DNA of 64,000 nt from a virus (lineage: Duplodnaviria > Heunggongvirae > Uroviricota > Caudoviricetes), in IMG/VR virus record IMGVR_UViG_3300042401_002002. The stretch is one strand, 5' to 3'. The notes under the pieces are model-generated. The model worked only from the letters and a program-made list of their open reading frames with translations. It made no database searches and was not told where the DNA came from. Positions 764 through 59,032 of this stretch are shown here, one piece after another (positions within the stretch are counted from its first letter, which is position 1; the number at the start of each line of letters is the position of its first letter). The translations under genes were made by a program, and so were the position numbers.

Positions 764-850
764 AGAGAGTTGGGTGAGAGGTTTAAACCAGGGCATTGCT
801 AACGCTCCGACCCCTAAAAAGGTCCACAGGTTCAAATCCTGTACTCTCTG
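764..850 (+). tRNA. tRNA-Ser(GCT)
   Basis: Acceptor AGAGAGT/ACTCTCT, discriminator G, anticodon loop TT-GCT-AA, long variable arm, T-arm ACAGG-TTCAAAT-CCTGT; no encoded CCA. Confidence 0.93.
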
Positions 851-25145: not shown

Positions 25146-25150
25146 AAACA

Positions 25151-26164: not shown

Positions 26165-27550
26165 ATGAAAAAATTACTAACAACGCTATTAATATTATCT
26201 TATTTAACTGTTTCTGCGCAGATTAAAAAAGTTTATTACAATACTCACTCGGACACTACTATATTTAATGGTAAAATATATAGGGAAGATGTTTTTAATC
26301 CAAACAAAACTGTAACTATTAATAACATAAATTATAACTACAGTTTTTTACATTTATATAAAGATACCAAAGGTGCATTAAGAAGTTATGGTGATTTTGA
26401 AGCTAATCGTTGCGAATCAACTGACACAACTTTGTTTTATTATATTAGCAAAAACAGTTTATACAAAGTAAATGACAAGAAAATACAGAAGTTAAAATTC
26501 AATGATGACAACCCACAATTAATTGATGAAATTTGCTTTCTAAGAAAGAATTTTGGTATAGCAAGGTCAAACTACCGACTATATGTTTACGATGGTTCTG
26601 ATACGCTTAAATTCAAATCTAAACTACTAAACTACGCTTTGCCATATAAAGGTGAAGAAAATAAATTTGTTTATTATGATAGTATTTTAGGTTTATTTAA
26701 TGAAAACTTAACACAAGTTATTAATAGAGAAAAATATACAGAAACAGGTTATTATGTACCAAGAGAATCTGTACAAGATTTTCTTAACTATATAAAATGT
26801 AACAACATTAATAATTCGTGTTTAGATACTAAATATGTAAGATATGATTACCCAACATTTAACCAAGAATATACATTTTATTACGACAAACGTGAGTTAT
26901 ACCACTATACTAGCAATTTACTAGAACAATATTTAGATAATCGTTCAGATGAATATTTAAAAGAAATAAGTAAAACACCAGATAGTTTAGTTATTGATAA
27001 TATTATTATGACTGATTTGTTATTAAAAGTTGCTTTACAATCAAAAATAAATTTAGATGTTAAATTATTAACGTATTCAATGTTTTTATTAAATGATAGT
27101 TTAATGATAACAGGTTATAGCCATAATAATGAATATCAATTAGGTTTGTATAACTTAAAAAATAATTCATTCATTAAATTCACACCACCTACTTGCAAGT
27201 TTATTACCAAATATTATGATGAGGATGGTTTTAGAAATATTAAAACCGAAACAGTTCCATTAACACCACATTTAATTTCATATCATTACAATGAGAATGA
27301 AAATAGTGTTTTATGCAGCGGTAATGATGGTTATATATTTAATATTGACTTAAACACATTTAAAATAAATAACATAACTGATTATGTTATTAAAGAAAAT
27401 ATTCACACATCTAAAAATGATAAATTTAAAGAAGTTGAAATGGTCTACTTAAAGGAAATAAAAGATGGAGTTTATACTGAGATACCTTGGTTAAACTATA
27501 TTAAGAAAAACTTCTTAGTTCAAAAATTTTACAATAATGATAATAGATAA
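26165..27550 (+). CDS. exported protein with SPI signal peptide
   Basis: MKKLLTTLLILSYLTVSA|QIKK; TTTG-N19-TAAATTTG promoter at 26105-26135; stop codon overlaps attC-like box. Confidence 0.7.
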   Translation: MKKLLTTLLILSYLTVSAQIKKVYYNTHSDTTIFNGKIYREDVFNPNKTVTINNINYNYSFLHLYKDTKGALRSYGDFEANRCESTDTTLFYYISKNSLYKVNDKKIQKLKFNDDNPQLIDEICFLRKNFGIARSNYRLYVYDGSDTLKFKSKLLNYALPYKGEENKFVYYDSILGLFNENLTQVINREKYTETGYYVPRESVQDFLNYIKCNNINNSCLDTKYVRYDYPTFNQEYTFYYDKRELYHYTSNLLEQYLDNRSDEYLKEISKTPDSLVIDNIIMTDLLLKVALQSKINLDVKLLTYSMFLLNDSLMITGYSHNNEYQLGLYNLKNNSFIKFTPPTCKFITKYYDEDGFRNIKTETVPLTPHLISYHYNENENSVLCSGNDGYIFNIDLNTFKINNITDYVIKENIHTSKNDKFKEVEMVYLKEIKDGVYTEIPWLNYIKKNFLVQKFYNNDNR

Positions 27551-27680
27551 CTAACAGAATATTTGCTAAAGTGGGTTTTTATCCTTACCTTTGTTTTCAA
27601 TCTAAAATTCTACTAAAACCAAAATTATGAACCTTATTCAATCTTTAATAACCCACCTTCGCAAATATTATATGTTGTGT
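27549..27680 (+). repeat. attC-like site A, copy 1
   Basis: R'' AACTAAC (27549-55), arms AATATTTGCTAAAGTGGGTT / AACCCACCTTCGCAAATATT, R' GTTGTGT (27674-80); near-identical to 58057-58189. Confidence 0.72.
27562..27593 (+). promoter_or_regulatory. Bacteroidota-type promoter embedded in attC-like site A
   Basis: TTTG-N20-TACCTTTG. Confidence 0.72.
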
Positions 27681-27956
27681 GTTAGTTTAATAAGACCGCA
27701 ACAACACGACACAGACTTGCAAGAGAATGAAAAAAATGGTAAGTTTGAGAAAAATAATAAGACTATGACAGATGTTGAAGTAAATAATAAAAGGTATCTT
27801 TCATCAAGTAAGATATCTGAAACCGAAATTAACTCTATTAAAAATAGAGCGCAAGAATCATACCAAGCACACCATAACAAGGTAAATCAATTTACCAAAA
27901 TGACACCTGACGAAAGATTAAAAATGGTTTTAAATAATCGCAATGTTTCAAAATGA
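27627..27956 (+). CDS. hypothetical: attC-encoded leader fused to cassette cargo
   Basis: Starts inside hairpin A; first ~43 aa homologous to N-terminus of 58136..58651, remainder unrelated. Confidence 0.6.
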   Translation: MNLIQSLITHLRKYYMLCVSLIRPQQHDTDLQENEKNGKFEKNNKTMTDVEVNNKRYLSSSKISETEINSIKNRAQESYQAHHNKVNQFTKMTPDERLKMVLNNRNVSK

Positions 27957-28484
27957 ATATATTATAGAATACAATATTAATAACTACGGTATTGGTGTAA
28001 TCACTTATGATATCAGTTACATTAATCCATTATGGAAAATAATAATTTTTAAATTTAACTATTTAACGTACTATAATAATTCTATGTTATTAGAGAGTTA
28101 CTTTACTTTAGAAGATGTAAACAAAAATGACAATTTTAGTATGTACAGCAAAAACGATAAAATTATATTATGGAAAATTATTTTTAGTATTAAAAACTAT
28201 TATTTTAACAAACACAAACCAGATATTGTTGAACACTTTATTGATGGTAATTTTTCAAAAAGATTAAAATTATATAAATGTTATTTAAATCCGACACATT
28301 ATTATTACCAAGACGAACAACATTTAAATATATTTTATTTAAAACTTTAACAAAACCAACACACAACATGGGTTTGGTAAAAGCAGGGCTGACGTGAATA
28401 ACCAAGTTTCAACTTCTATCAAACTTAAGTTGTTAAACCCAACAGATGTAATTCTAAACCCTGCCTTCACCAAGCCCTTTGACG
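27675..28484 (+). mobile_element. putative integron-like gene cassette 1 (810 bp)
   Basis: Between G|TT crossover points of sites A and B; 5' end TTGTGT complements its own R'' ACACAAC. Confidence 0.62.
27943..28350 (+). CDS. hypothetical cargo protein
   Basis: 135 aa, overlaps upstream ORF, ends 10 nt before site B. Confidence 0.6.
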   Translation: MFQNEYIIEYNINNYGIGVITYDISYINPLWKIIIFKFNYLTYYNNSMLLESYFTLEDVNKNDNFSMYSKNDKIILWKIIFSIKNYYFNKHKPDIVEHFIDGNFSKRLKLYKCYLNPTHYYYQDEQHLNIFYLKL

Positions 28485-28490
28485 TTAGTT
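28361..28490 (+). repeat. attC-like site B, copy 1
   Basis: R'' ACACAAC, arms GGGTTTGGTAAAAGCAGGG / CCCTGCCTTCACCAAGCCC, R' GTTAGTT (28484-90); near-identical to 58904-59032. Confidence 0.75.
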
Positions 28491-28514
28491 ATCATTATAC
28501 AAACATATAATAAC

Positions 28515-28739
28515 ATGAATTTCTTAGACGATTATAAAAAACTAGAGAATGAGTTATTAGCTTCAGAGCAAGAAAATAACCGAAAAAAGAACTATTTATT
28601 AAGAGAACTTAAAGCAACACCTATAGAAGAAATTATTGGGATACCTCAAGATTTAGTCAATAATATTGAAAACCCAGATAAACTAGAAACTAAAGAACCG
28701 ACTAAGCTATTTGGTTGGTTAAAGAAAATATTTAGATGA
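28515..28739 (+). CDS. hypothetical protein
   Basis: ATG MNFLDDY at 28515; track start 28479 lies in site B. Confidence 0.6.
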   Translation: MNFLDDYKKLENELLASEQENNRKKNYLLRELKATPIEEIIGIPQDLVNNIENPDKLETKEPTKLFGWLKKIFR

Positions 28740-29692: not shown

Positions 29693-29734
29693 TTGTAAAC
29701 TTTAACTATTTATAATAAATAACTAAATCTTTTA

Positions 29735-31462
29735 ATGCTTTCTCTTAATTTACCTATTATACATAACAGTGATACTAATTTTGTCGAAGACAAAATGAAT
29801 CAACACGCTTATGCTTTTAGGTATATGTTTAGAACATTAGATGAATCCGGTAATCGTCAATACGATGATAATATTAAAAATAAATTTAAATTAAATGATA
29901 CTGAATATAGTTCACTTGAAACGGTAGTAAAAACTTTCTTTAAACAGTGTGAAACAAACAATAAAAAGACACAAAAACGTATTAATAATAAGTTAGATGA
30001 AATTGAAGAACTTAAAACCAAACAACAAGACCCTAAAAAGTTTCTAACTAAAAAAGAAAAACGTTCACTTCATAAATTACAAGAACAAGTTGTTTATTTA
30101 AAAGGTGTTCTTAAAAACAAACCTGTTTTTGGTGGTAGAAAGAACCTACAACATTTAACACATTTACATAATCAGTACAATACTTTAGTTAATAATCTAT
30201 CTGTTACAACTGATGAAACTGAAATAATATTACTTGAAAATGAATTAGTCGAACAGTTTGATAAAATTGAAAAACAAAAGAACAAATATGTTACACAGAG
30301 ATTAAGGTCTTTTTATTTGTTGGGCGAAGCCAATCAAAAAGGTAACAGGTTCTTTGACTTTATAAAACTAAATGAAGGTTTGTTGGTTTACAAACCCAAA
30401 CAAGGTACTAAAGTCAACTTAACTGTTAAGGTTTGCAAGAATGAACTTAAACTTGTTAACAAGTTGATTGAGTTATCTCAAACTAAAAACATTAGTTTGT
30501 CTGTTTATTTATCAAACAAAAGTGTTTCAATTGCTTACGATGATGATATTGTTAACGGTTGGACACTTGATGAAACTGAAAAGAAACAAAAGATTAAAGA
30601 AATAAAAGAAACGTATGTTGATAAAGAGTTACAAACAACACTTATAAAAGCTGTTTACAGTGAACACCATAGAAAAGTTGAGCAATTAAAACTAGAAGGT
30701 AAAATTGAAGGACGTTGCGTAGCAATTGATATGAATCCATCTTATATTGGAGTTGCTATCTTAGAACGTGATTATGAGAATGAAGATACAGAAACAGGTA
30801 AACATGCTGTAAAAGTAATACATAAGTTCTGTTATTCTTTAAAGTATTTTATACAAAAGCTTCCTAAGGAAGCAACAGAAGAGGAAAGAGAATACTTACG
30901 TAACAAACAGAAACATGAGATTAAAGAATTAAATCATCATTTGTTTAATGTAGCTAATCATTATAAATGTTCAAGTTTTGTAATGGAAGACTTAAATTTT
31001 AATGAGTCAAAAGAAACATTAAAGAAAGGTAAAGAAGCAAACAGACAAACCAAAAATGTATGGTACAGAGGTCTGTTTACACAGATGATAATGAAGTTAA
31101 CTTCAAAATATGGTATCAAACTTATAGAAGTTGAACCAAGTTATTCTTCATTTATTGGAAATATAATGTACAAGAACTTTGACCCTATCAATTCAGCTAT
31201 TGAGATAGGAAGAAGAGGATTGTATAAGTTTATAAAAAATTGTGCAGGTTTACCACAGATTACCGAAGGTATCTTGAACACCGTGGCTGAAATTCTTTTA
31301 AAGAATGGAGAGGATGTTTCAAAGATGAACAAAATGAGTAAAGTGACGTGGAAAAACTTGTTTAACCTCTTGAAAAAATACAGATGGAGAGGTTCATCGG
31401 ACTTGGTAACAAGTCGATGCAGGATGAGTACTAAAAAGAGTAGAGTTAAGATATTAAGCTGA
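29735..31462 (+). CDS. tnpB: large TnpB-like RNA-guided nuclease (IS200/IS605-related), no transposase adjacent
   Basis: RuvC-I AIDMNPSYIG, RuvC-II FVMEDLNF, EVEPSYSSFIG, RuvC-III DPINSAIEIGRRG. Confidence 0.82.
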   Translation: MLSLNLPIIHNSDTNFVEDKMNQHAYAFRYMFRTLDESGNRQYDDNIKNKFKLNDTEYSSLETVVKTFFKQCETNNKKTQKRINNKLDEIEELKTKQQDPKKFLTKKEKRSLHKLQEQVVYLKGVLKNKPVFGGRKNLQHLTHLHNQYNTLVNNLSVTTDETEIILLENELVEQFDKIEKQKNKYVTQRLRSFYLLGEANQKGNRFFDFIKLNEGLLVYKPKQGTKVNLTVKVCKNELKLVNKLIELSQTKNISLSVYLSNKSVSIAYDDDIVNGWTLDETEKKQKIKEIKETYVDKELQTTLIKAVYSEHHRKVEQLKLEGKIEGRCVAIDMNPSYIGVAILERDYENEDTETGKHAVKVIHKFCYSLKYFIQKLPKEATEEEREYLRNKQKHEIKELNHHLFNVANHYKCSSFVMEDLNFNESKETLKKGKEANRQTKNVWYRGLFTQMIMKLTSKYGIKLIEVEPSYSSFIGNIMYKNFDPINSAIEIGRRGLYKFIKNCAGLPQITEGILNTVAEILLKNGEDVSKMNKMSKVTWKNLFNLLKKYRWRGSSDLVTSRCRMSTKKSRVKILS

Positions 31463-41938: not shown

Positions 41939-43454
41939 AAAATTTCATAGTATTTTATACTATTACTCTTCTTTTGTGGACTTTGACCTCACACTGGGTT
42001 AACTGCCAACCCTCTATCGGTTTCATGTTCCGTTTGGAACAATCCGCCCTTGCGTTTTATATTATTATCGGTACTAATTTACAGCGACTGCTGTCTAAGA
42101 ACCTACCGATACTTAACATATACTTTCTTAGTATATTATAACTACCATTCACATCTGAGTTAACTTTGATGTTGTTTTTACTAACGTACAAACCTCTTAG
42201 CTTACGACTTCCACTGAAACTGTAATTCTTAGCTTGGTTTTTATTATAAGTTGGTATCAAGTCATCATCAACAAAGCTCGCTTGTGATGTGTAACTTTCC
42301 TCTTGTTCCACAACAACGTTACCTATCAACTCACTTTTGTACTTTAACTGTTGAGTTAATTTAGTATAAGGTATCGAAACGAAGTTTTGGTTAACTTTCT
42401 TTGACATATTTACTTCGTCTTTCCAACCTTTGTTACAACCTACAACTATTGTACCAATATTATACTGTAAACATAGTTGCAATATTTTGTTTGTGTACTC
42501 ATGAAACTCATGTTCAATTTTACAGTTACGTTTGTGAGTTAAAGTGTTAATCTTATTTGAGTTCTGTAAGATTTGAGGGTTTCCTTCTTTGTCTTTCAAA
42601 CTAGAATGATTTGGTAGTTGCGACTGCAACTCTGCTCTGACTTTATTATAAAACTGATTTATTGATTTAACATGACCACCTTTAATTATACGAGGCTGAA
42701 AGCCTTCTACATTTGATGTTATGGTCATTAAATTGTTAACTCCGTAATCAATACTTATAATATTATCTTTATTTAAGTTCATGTTCTTTTCTTCTACATC
42801 ATAAACAACTTCAATTTTATATTTTTTATTTGACATTGGTACTAATCGTACCATTTTCAAAACACCGTTGTGTTTGTTAATGACAGGTACTTCAATGTTA
42901 GTTCCACTAAGTTTAATAAAACCTTGTTTTAATTTAGTTTTAGATATTGCACCAAGTTCATACGTTACTACGTAACGACCTTTGGTTTTGTGCAAGTAGT
43001 TAGGTAACTTTGGTCTGCCTGTTAAACAGTCTTTATTACTTTTGTACTTTTTACAAAGAGCAAAGAAAGATTTAAAGTTTTTATCAACCAACATAAGAGT
43101 TTGATTACTAACTTTACGTGGTAATTCACAATAATCAACATCTTTACTGTCAACAAATTGTCTATTAATAGTATTATAATTAAAATAATTTGCATGGTCA
43201 ACCATGCCTTGTTCTTTTAATTTGGAAGTATTAATAAATTCTTGTCTTACAGTATAGAGAGCTTTATTATACAGATTTTTACTTTTAAAACACAGAGAAT
43301 CAATCTCTTCATAGAAGCGATGTGATTTATTAATTATGTGTTTTTCGGTATTGTACATTAACAGTTATTATTTATTATAAATAGTTTGTTTTATAAAATA
43401 AATATGTTAAATTTACATAAAACTAACATAAAGTTCTATGTTAGATGGTTGCTT
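41939..43454 (-). mobile_element. non-autonomous tnpB-only IS200/IS605-type element (approximate ends)
   Basis: Subterminal hairpins CTAACATA/TATGTTAG (43423-44) and ATAGTAT/ATACTAT (41947-63); TTTAAA at both junctions; splits a homing endonuclease ORF. Confidence 0.7.
42057..43358 (-). CDS. tnpB: TnpB RNA-guided endonuclease
   Basis: EKHII...CFKSKNLYN N-terminus, RuvC-I SIDYGVNNL, EESYTSQAS, RuvC-III NSDVNGSYNILRK. Confidence 0.9.
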   Translation of the reverse strand: MYNTEKHIINKSHRFYEEIDSLCFKSKNLYNKALYTVRQEFINTSKLKEQGMVDHANYFNYNTINRQFVDSKDVDYCELPRKVSNQTLMLVDKNFKSFFALCKKYKSNKDCLTGRPKLPNYLHKTKGRYVVTYELGAISKTKLKQGFIKLSGTNIEVPVINKHNGVLKMVRLVPMSNKKYKIEVVYDVEEKNMNLNKDNIISIDYGVNNLMTITSNVEGFQPRIIKGGHVKSINQFYNKVRAELQSQLPNHSSLKDKEGNPQILQNSNKINTLTHKRNCKIEHEFHEYTNKILQLCLQYNIGTIVVGCNKGWKDEVNMSKKVNQNFVSIPYTKLTQQLKYKSELIGNVVVEQEESYTSQASFVDDDLIPTYNKNQAKNYSFSGSRKLRGLYVSKNNIKVNSDVNGSYNILRKYMLSIGRFLDSSRCKLVPIII

Positions 43455-58056: not shown

Positions 58057-58189
58057 AACTAACAGAATATTTGCTAAAGTGGGTTTTTATTCCTACATTT
58101 GTTTCTCAATCTAAAATTCTACTAAAAACCAAGTTATGAACTTTATACAATCTTTAATAACCCACCTTCGCAAATATTTAATGTTGTGT
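58057..58189 (+). repeat. attC-like site A, copy 2
   Basis: R'' AACTAAC, same arms as copy 1, R' GTTGTGT at 58183-89. Confidence 0.72.
58070..58101 (+). promoter_or_regulatory. Bacteroidota-type promoter embedded in site A copy 2
   Basis: TTTG-N20-TACATTTG. Confidence 0.75.
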
Positions 58190-58651
58190 GTTAGTTTGGT
58201 AAGACCGAAACGTAAAACAGAGTTGCAAGAGAATGAAAAAATTGGTAAGTTTGAGAATAACTTATATGAATTTATTATGATAAACAACCCTGAAGCTAAA
58301 AATAAAATAGAATCATTTGAAACACACAAATTATTTTCAAAATTTTTAAAAGAAAAAATAATTTTAGATGATATAAAAGAAATAACTGAATTTATATCAG
58401 AAAGTAAGACTATTATAAATATTGAATTACTTTTTTCAGAAGTTCATATAAAATATGAAGGTTTTATACATGAATCAGGTTTAATCAAAAACAAATATAT
58501 AGTAAAAGATAAAAATTTCAATGTGTTATATGAATTTAAAATAATTAAAAATTACCCAGGACTTTACTGTGAAATTAACAACACAAATCAAGAGTTTAAT
58601 GACGTAATGTTCATTAATATTATAATGAAAATAATTAATAATTTAAAATAA
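58136..58651 (+). CDS. hypothetical: attC-encoded leader fused to a different cargo
   Basis: MNFIQSLITHLRKYLMLCVSLVRP... leader, then ~130 unrelated aa. Confidence 0.62.
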   Translation: MNFIQSLITHLRKYLMLCVSLVRPKRKTELQENEKIGKFENNLYEFIMINNPEAKNKIESFETHKLFSKFLKEKIILDDIKEITEFISESKTIINIELLFSEVHIKYEGFIHESGLIKNKYIVKDKNFNVLYEFKIIKNYPGLYCEINNTNQEFNDVMFINIIMKIINNLK

Positions 58652-59026
58652 ATTCTGTTGAAAGGTTTGGTTGTTAAAGATTACCCTAGTTTCTGTCAAA
58701 ACTAGGGTTGTCTGCTCTACTTTCTTATTTCAAAAAATGTAATTTTATTCACATTAATATTAGTAGTTTTGTTAAAGTACATGGCAACGACAAATGCCAG
58801 AAACAATAGTTTGTAAAAATTTGACATATAAAAATTATTTAGACAGCAATCTACAAACTTTGACAATAACAACCAAACCCAAGACAGAAATAACAAAACC
58901 AACACACAACATGGGTTTGGTAAAAGCAGGGCTGACGTGAATAACCGAGTTTCTACTTCTACCAAACTTAAGTTGTCAAACAAAGTGATGTAATTTTAAA
59001 CCCTGCCTTCACCAAGCCCTTTGACG
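58184..59026 (+). mobile_element. putative integron-like gene cassette 2 (843 bp)
   Basis: Same boundaries as cassette 1, different interior. Confidence 0.62.
58683..58708 (+). terminator. hairpin after cassette 2 cargo
   Basis: ACCCTAGTTT...AAACTAGGGT. Confidence 0.6.
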
Positions 59027-59032
59027 TTAGTT
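58904..59032 (+). repeat. attC-like site B, copy 2
   Basis: R'' ACACAAC 58904-10, R' GTTAGTT 59026-32; arms identical to copy 1. Confidence 0.75.

Follow-up and report, generated by a model that had tools for sequence, protein, structure and literature searches.

How can a hairpin with the anatomy of a cassette recombination site also hold the start of the gene that follows it? The question is raised by a 124-nt palindrome found in a window of 64,000 nucleotides of a Caudoviricetes genome. According to the original prediction, recombination site, promoter and translation start are compressed in this hairpin, and anything inserted next to it is transcribed and potentially translated. The underlying sequence pattern is real, beyond chance, and is a variant of the integron theme. 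The overall reading set out below, a stand-alone docking site with an in-frame leader, a lineage-specific promoter and a recombinase acting in trans, is considered moderately likely.

The phage genome

The virus record spans 195 kb, has a GC content of 26.6% and is estimated to be 61% complete; the window is a part of it. The phage is a large, freshwater, lytic-type genome, and the sequencing runs matching it best come from lake and freshwater metagenomes. A protein identical to one of the phage's is also encoded on a 308-kb contig. Three variants of the hairpin, hereafter called A, are found among contigs of four DNA runs. The join expected at an empty site is not found among them, and its absence cannot be judged from contigs.

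A hairpin of the attC type

Hairpin A occurs twice in the window (A1 and A2) and once more (A3) in the rest of the genome.

27548..27555, + strand: R''-type inverse core box of A1, TAACTAAC, complementary to GTTAGTTA after hairpin B1
27553..27676, + strand: hairpin A1, 124 nt from AAC to GTT, docking site of the attC type
27674..27675, + strand: putative crossover G/TT in A1, exactly between codons 16 and 17
58061..58185, + strand: hairpin A2, 125 nt
genome 51253-51129, - strand: third hairpin A (A3), with promoter motif and leader, outside the window

Sites of the attC type are recognized as imperfect palindromes of 55-140 nt, starting with an AAC inverse core and ending with a GTT core. Hairpin A has these ends and a length of 124-125 nt, AAC and GTT being located in A1 at 27553 and 27674. 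The TAA within the TAACTAAC box is the stop codon of the upstream ORF 26165-27550. The crossover G is at 27674 in A1 and at 58183 in A2, and G/TT is the point where A3 and a further copy, L131, diverge or swap. Relative to shuffled sequences, the fold has z-scores of -3.2 (top strand) and -4.7 (bottom strand) in A1, and of -1.9 and -2.9 in A2; the bottom strand folds more stably than the top one in all the four A-type sites folded. Significance is confined to the hairpin proper, as the z-score of the whole 240-nt region is about -0.6. In the fold of the A family 97% of the cells are paired and three pairs are compensatory. These stem arm pairs co-vary between two phage lineages, the present one and a sister lineage, and may reflect a single lineage split, not independent events. 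The R'' box co-varies between the lineages with the flank found past the terminal hairpin (TAACTAAC with GTTAGTTA, TAAATAAC with GTTATTTA), which lies up to 1 kb away. Canonical attC sites have an unpaired central spacer, and their L'' arm carries extrahelical bases. A has one invariant unpaired C, in the right arm and not in the textbook place, and spacers of 2/4 nt.

A sister-type A with a decayed left arm, joined to the upstream gene, is found at L143:1090-1220 (also in L142 and L144). Leader and fusion persist there, and the upstream gene at L143 seems shortened relative to G000 178163.

Cassette exchange

The DNA following A1 and A2 is organized as a cassette closed by a hairpin of its own.

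27675..27764, + strand: 5' pad of cassette 1, in frame, 30 codons, common to many cassettes
27765..27956, + strand: cargo ORF 1 from internal ATG, 63 aa, no family
27943..28350, + strand: cargo ORF 2, 135 aa, no family, overlapping ORF 1
28365..28486, + strand: hairpin B1, attC-type site belonging to cassette 1, with its crossover G at 28484
58184..58651, + strand: cassette 2, 5' pad and cargo (internal ATG 58277, 124 aa, no family)
58908..59028, + strand: hairpin B2, end of cassette 2, crossover G at 59026
genome 50374-50259, - strand: closing hairpin of the A3 cassette, of another type (L136)

At the A3 locus, two phages share the left arm and the right flank, and differ in cassettes and terminal hairpins. 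In the sister phage the cassette carries an HNH gene and is closed by a B hairpin in place of a C hairpin. An equivalent exchange is seen at another locus in L139 and L159, and one cargo (proteins P0013 and P0020) has been found behind both platform types. The cassette start GTTGTGTG matches CACACAAC before hairpin B, and the ends of the cassette are complementary, as in attC-bounded cassettes. Because cassettes are swapped and the boxes are matched, A stays in place and the cassettes move, and the site emptied of its cassette would form a complete self-complementary attC. A is thus very probably a fixed docking site of the attC type, at which the DNA from G/TT to the next hairpin is replaced; the attC anatomy and the exchanges at A3 and in L139/L159 bear out the original prediction on this point.

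A co-varying stem whose right arm holds a short leader ORF would also be expected of an RNA regulatory hairpin, either an attenuator or a processing site, copied with its leader peptide in front of accessory genes and foreign to recombination, and the modelled read-through RNA does fold, at -31 to -34 kcal/mol. Such a hairpin would hardly account for exchanges falling exactly at G/TT, for complementary cassette ends, for a better folding of the bottom DNA strand or for an R'' box changing in step with so distant a flank. Hairpin A, moreover, has no match in Rfam, and an RNA role of this kind is highly improbable.

Going back to the docking site, A-related sites have been identified at at least nine unrelated loci in the two lineages. 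Sites of the sister lineage map to six positions lacking A in this genome; given its absence at six homologous positions, the dock itself would spread, moving to new loci in its own right.

A few features of docks and cassettes are worth recording. In L148:9891-10789 a complete dock with its cassette lies between two genes only 3 nt apart in the present genome (G000:C1:166675-166679). At L148:10202-10555 and L159:8347-8568 the leader-fused ORF is overlapped at its 3' terminus by a second, convergent ORF. A sister phage hosts an eight-hairpin array (L159:12878-18384), in which mostly DNA methyltransferase genes are found between hairpins. For one cargo, PADLOC returned weak HNH matches only. 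Excision of cassette 1 would join the leader to ORF 28515 (100 aa; window 28485-28739).

A leader frame open through the crossover

An ORF starts within the hairpin and crosses its right arm.

27627..27674, + strand: first 16 leader codons, encoded by the A1 platform (loop: 2-8; right arm: 9-16)
58136..58183, + strand: A2 platform leader, codons 1-16

As predicted, frames starting at ATGs 27627 and 58136 are open through the right arm and G/TT, and form ORFs of 109 and 171 aa. The leader had been described as being ~42 aa long. A1 and A2 do share a stretch ending in GKFE (41 and 40 aa), of which the hairpin encodes codons 1-16 only. A 42-aa platform leader was rejected, as A3 breaks off at codon 16. 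Since A3 diverges right after G/TT, residues 17 to ~41 are assigned to the cassette, together with the 3-nt indel; the two indels initially noted, one of 1 nt upstream and one of 3 nt downstream of the ATG, are thus both found, the latter in the cassette 5' end and not in the leader proper. Internally, Met first occurs at codon 47 in A1 (27765) and at codon 48 in A2 (58277).

In each of the 12 full copies (11/11 aligned, and L148:3013), 48 nt separate the ATG from the crossover, and the stretch between AAC and ATG varies from 62 to 76 nt. The indel-free stretch includes 24 unpaired nt. In the 12 copies the platform features an ORF of 16 codons before G/TT which overlaps the crossover, in the manner of ORF-11 of class 1 integrons, and the starts have invariably A or G at -3 (12/12). 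The frame continues open into the cargo at every occupied site seen. Five copies were collected independently of the leader: A1-A3 and L148:2939-3069 (covariance model) by DNA, L138 through the A3 protein, mostly its cargo. All five are fused in frame, an outcome having a probability of (1/3)^5 = 0.004 on frame alone, and lower once stops, at 0.09 per triplet, are taken into account, with the proviso that A1 and A2 have a common pad and are incompletely independent. L138 has a different platform, a crossover in another codon phase and an A3-type cargo, and is still fused in frame. As a control, the leader was joined to the flank left by excision (simulated empty site), and the frame was kept at one of seven loci. 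The hypothesis that excision serves by design to fuse the leader to the downstream gene was discarded, as this single fusion could be chance. The dN/dS comparison indicated in the original prediction was carried out as pN/pS on 11 copies: the ratio is 0.42 in loop codons 2-8 and 1.2 and 3.5 for the two alternative frames, with small counts and a bias to low pN, as eight of the copies were found by leader similarity. Protein searches retrieved the leader on more than 10 further unrelated proteins, such as an HNH nuclease and a SocA/Panacea antitoxin, in a set biased to fusions.

Start codon and frame through the crossover appear conserved and selected, and it is probable that the leader is both translated and under selection for frame. 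Ribosomes would start at the loop ATG and read 16 platform codons and the cassette pad into the cargo; selection would hold the cargo in the leader frame, and the product would often be an N-terminally extended protein. The notion that anything inserted is translated fits cassettes open in frame 0 from G/TT, and fails for the others.

Ordinary attC sites open by accident in one frame, kept alike by common descent and transcribed from upstream, could leave leader and promoter motif as mere by-products. In integrase-linked arrays 30 of 95 hairpins likewise hold an ATG running into the adjacent gene. Array genes face the opposite way, and hence the hairpin seems to travel with its gene; the frame of A crosses the exchange point. 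Pairing constrains right-arm codons, copies were ascertained by protein search, and the promoter described below is restricted to one lineage, all of which would suit by-products. Such an origin would nonetheless leave unexplained why indels have piled up before the ATG and are missing from there to the crossover, unpaired nucleotides included, why cargo junctions located at varied distances are still in frame, and why L138 is fused despite its platform and phase, when empty joins are in frame at chance level. It is accordingly judged quite improbable.

The original prediction had the leader fused in frame to each cargo; the frame is indeed conserved, and most cargo genes retain a plausible ATG of their own. 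Internal Met codons, mostly with A at -3, are found in 11 of 12 cargo frames. Cargo families begin at internal Met: the phrog_16034 match of one cargo starts exactly there, and the Panacea protein P0011 looks complete from its own ATG. Dock and translated leader could therefore be real and cargo be made mainly from its own ATGs, the leader working as a translation enhancer or hairpin opener of irrelevant peptide sequence. ORF-11 provides a precedent (PMC8876359): it acts via its initiation region, and changes in its amino acids are tolerated. Coupling of this sort needs no fixed frame, yet the five unbiased copies are all fused; loop codons show a synonymous excess, and the L159 cargo frame lacks any internal Met. 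Production mainly from internal ATGs is thus deemed unlikely, while the chances that the fused leader-cargo form would be the main product are evenly balanced.

The leader peptide has a hydrophobic moment of 0.38-0.63, about or above the 90th percentile of the phage's N-termini. A search for similarity between the leader and other N-termini of this phage gave none, and such a kinship was dismissed. A might be regarded as a portable tagging dock, which spreads, is served by a recombinase devoid of the IntI insertion, and adds an amphipathic targeting leader to every captured gene, directing unrelated proteins to membrane or virion. This is a speculative proposal, and doubtful.

A promoter motif in the hairpin

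Promoters read by the housekeeping sigma factor of Bacteroidota conform to TTTG-N19-21-TAHHTTTG, and transcripts start 5 nt past the final G (PMC6847099). Matching elements are found in A1 and A2.

27562..27565, + strand: -33 element TTTG, in the left stem arm of A1 (consensus of PMC6847099)
27586..27593, + strand: putative -7 element TACCTTTG, in the A1 loop, fitting TAHHTTTG; predicted TSS ~27598
58070..58101, + strand: bipartite promoter motif of A2; predicted TSS ~58106

The TTTG-N20-TAnnTTTG motif reported for both copies is indeed present at 27562-27593 and 58070-58101. Published spacing (PMC6847099) would place the TSSs at 27598 and 58106, against the ~27600 and 58108 first proposed. 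A sigma-70 scan was set aside as inapplicable to TTTG/TAHHTTTG promoters. The window contains 13 motifs against 3.9 expected, and no shuffle out of 100 contained 13 or more. Genome-wide, TTTG-N19-21-TAnnTTTG occurs 37 times (~10 expected), and 19 of the 37 are at most 80 nt from the start of a same-strand ORF, versus 4.6% of random positions. Because the motif is in excess genome-wide and half of its copies are near gene starts, we infer that the phage host belongs to Bacteroidota.

The full motif lies within the hairpin in four copies, A1, A2, A3 and L131, all from this lineage; in A1-A3 all variation in it falls in the -7 box, at the two free positions. None of eight sister-lineage hairpins has an internal motif, their stem reading TTTA and their loop being 6-14 nt shorter. 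Just upstream of these hairpins, three sister copies have a full motif, two the -7 box only, and three none; one of the upstream motifs is homologous to a promoter at an unoccupied locus in this genome. No same-strand motif was found in 85 other attC-type sites, and the idea that such sites generally carry a promoter was rejected. The predicted placement of a promoter motif within the hairpin consequently holds for the present lineage and not for its sister. On comparison of the copies, start codon and frame are the conserved part of A; the putative internal promoter is an optional feature, local to one lineage.

The -33 box is also a stem arm, hence conserved regardless of any role as promoter. 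A1-A3 are all downstream of same-strand genes, and read-through from these could be a source of transcription. In RNA models, codons 9-16 have an unpaired fraction of 0.64-0.72 if transcription starts at the predicted TSS, versus 0.23-0.24 in read-through RNA. RNA without the left arm leaves these codons mostly unpaired, which would be a reason for selecting an internal promoter, if used. That the promoter is active in this lineage is rather likely. The loop -7 box and the stem-arm TTTG as -33 would make up a promoter for the host sigma factor, and transcripts would start in the loop, free of the left arm and of any fold over codons 9-16. Sister-lineage sites would depend on upstream promoters.

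Recombinase and class of the system

A short tyrosine recombinase of 269 aa is encoded at genome 169639-170448, adjoining a separate two-cassette array. Its match to TIGR02249 is split and scores 154.5 bits, below the cut-off of 265. Residues 180-210 cover chain 180-258 of 2a3v, and in comparisons with both TIGR02249 and 2a3v the IntI-specific insertion near patch III is absent. Since the recombinase lacks this insertion, the system is integron-like in its predicted working and is not classed as an integron. Relatives of the enzyme head long arrays of similar hairpins. The recombinase, or a host relative, may act on A sites in trans. The A copies are ~18, 49 and 118 kb away from it, thus none is an integrase-adjacent primary site, and A folds as a hairpin, as a non-palindromic, double-stranded attI would not.

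In the array (G000:C1:168224-170448; L137, L001) the recombinase is beside two cassettes, one of them methyltransferase-like. The cassette genes oppose the hairpin top strand, and one begins inside its hairpin.

Comparison with known systems

Integrons normally divide the labour: the cassette is expressed from attI and Pc, next to the integrase gene, and brings its attC along. Hairpin A, taken as a stand-alone dock of an integron-like system of a Bacteroidota phage, would be an attC-type fold doing the job of attI at scattered sites, with a translation start of its own and, in one of the lineages, also a promoter motif.

The nearest parallel to A is attI1 of class 1 integrons with Pc and ORF-11, ORF-17 or ORF-18, a fixed site which similarly gives the first cassette transcription and a short ORF over G/TT (PMC8876359). 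attI1 is double-stranded, non-hairpin and beside intI, with Pc upstream, whereas A is an attC-type hairpin found at several loci. ORF-11 has a Shine-Dalgarno sequence and in most cases ends within the cassette core, which leads to coupling (PMC8876359); the A leader has no such sequence, does not stop in the cassette core or 5' UTR, and fuses to the cargo. Phage attC sites and CALINs, such as those of Polaribacter phage P12002L, resemble A in the parts of PMC9892861 consulted: AAC...GTT palindromes surround single-gene cassettes, and the bottom strand folds better. A differs from the sites described there in being a resident acceptor with a single docked cassette, and the same parts of that report mention no promoter or leader inside the phage attCs. 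TSSs have been mapped inside attC in a gene-less cassette of Vibrionaceae, scattered and possibly spurious (PMC11014356), and short ORFs in attC are described as lifting, by re-initiation, the block that the hairpin imposes on translation (PMC8876359, section 3.2). Compared with these cases, A features a consensus promoter motif whose -33 element belongs to the stem, along with an in-frame fusion that is conserved. The match to promoters and SD-less initiation of Bacteroidota is close (exact consensus, 20-nt spacer, leader of 29-30 nt, A-rich initiation region), the difference from the promoters in PMC6847099 being that the motif of A sits within a recombination hairpin. The literature, incompletely covered, yielded no description of an attC-type acceptor with a fused leader or of the present short-recombinase system.

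As a 125-nt portable site for insertion and expression, A would be suited to Bacteroidota engineering. Cassettes that have common ends, carry unrelated cargo and are joined in frame at varied distances bear on how cassettes acquire genes.

Relatives and other repeats

Viral, metagenome and genome collections, from which near relatives may be missing, were scanned for exact DNA patterns and gave chance matches only; tblastn-confirmed locus searches with leader and exonuclease queries gave no match. No A-like site was found near ORF 59092 relatives (0/74, all distant). Across 49 virus records, the covariance model detected nothing but weak generic attC matches, and INPHARED phages contained no meaningful match.

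A tRNA gene (window 764-850) is the sole Rfam match in the window. A family of terminator-like intergenic hairpins is found at window positions 25150, 33956, 35882, 37189, 48875 and 53670. Two inverted paralogues of 1.77 kb (window 29698-31436 and G000:C1:41073-42802; 75% DNA identity) encode proteins of 575 and 574 aa, and the window copy has no match in Pfam or PHROG. An inverted duplicate of 922 nt, 92% identical, links window 42460-43379 to G000:C1:194362-195283 and extends to the contig end.
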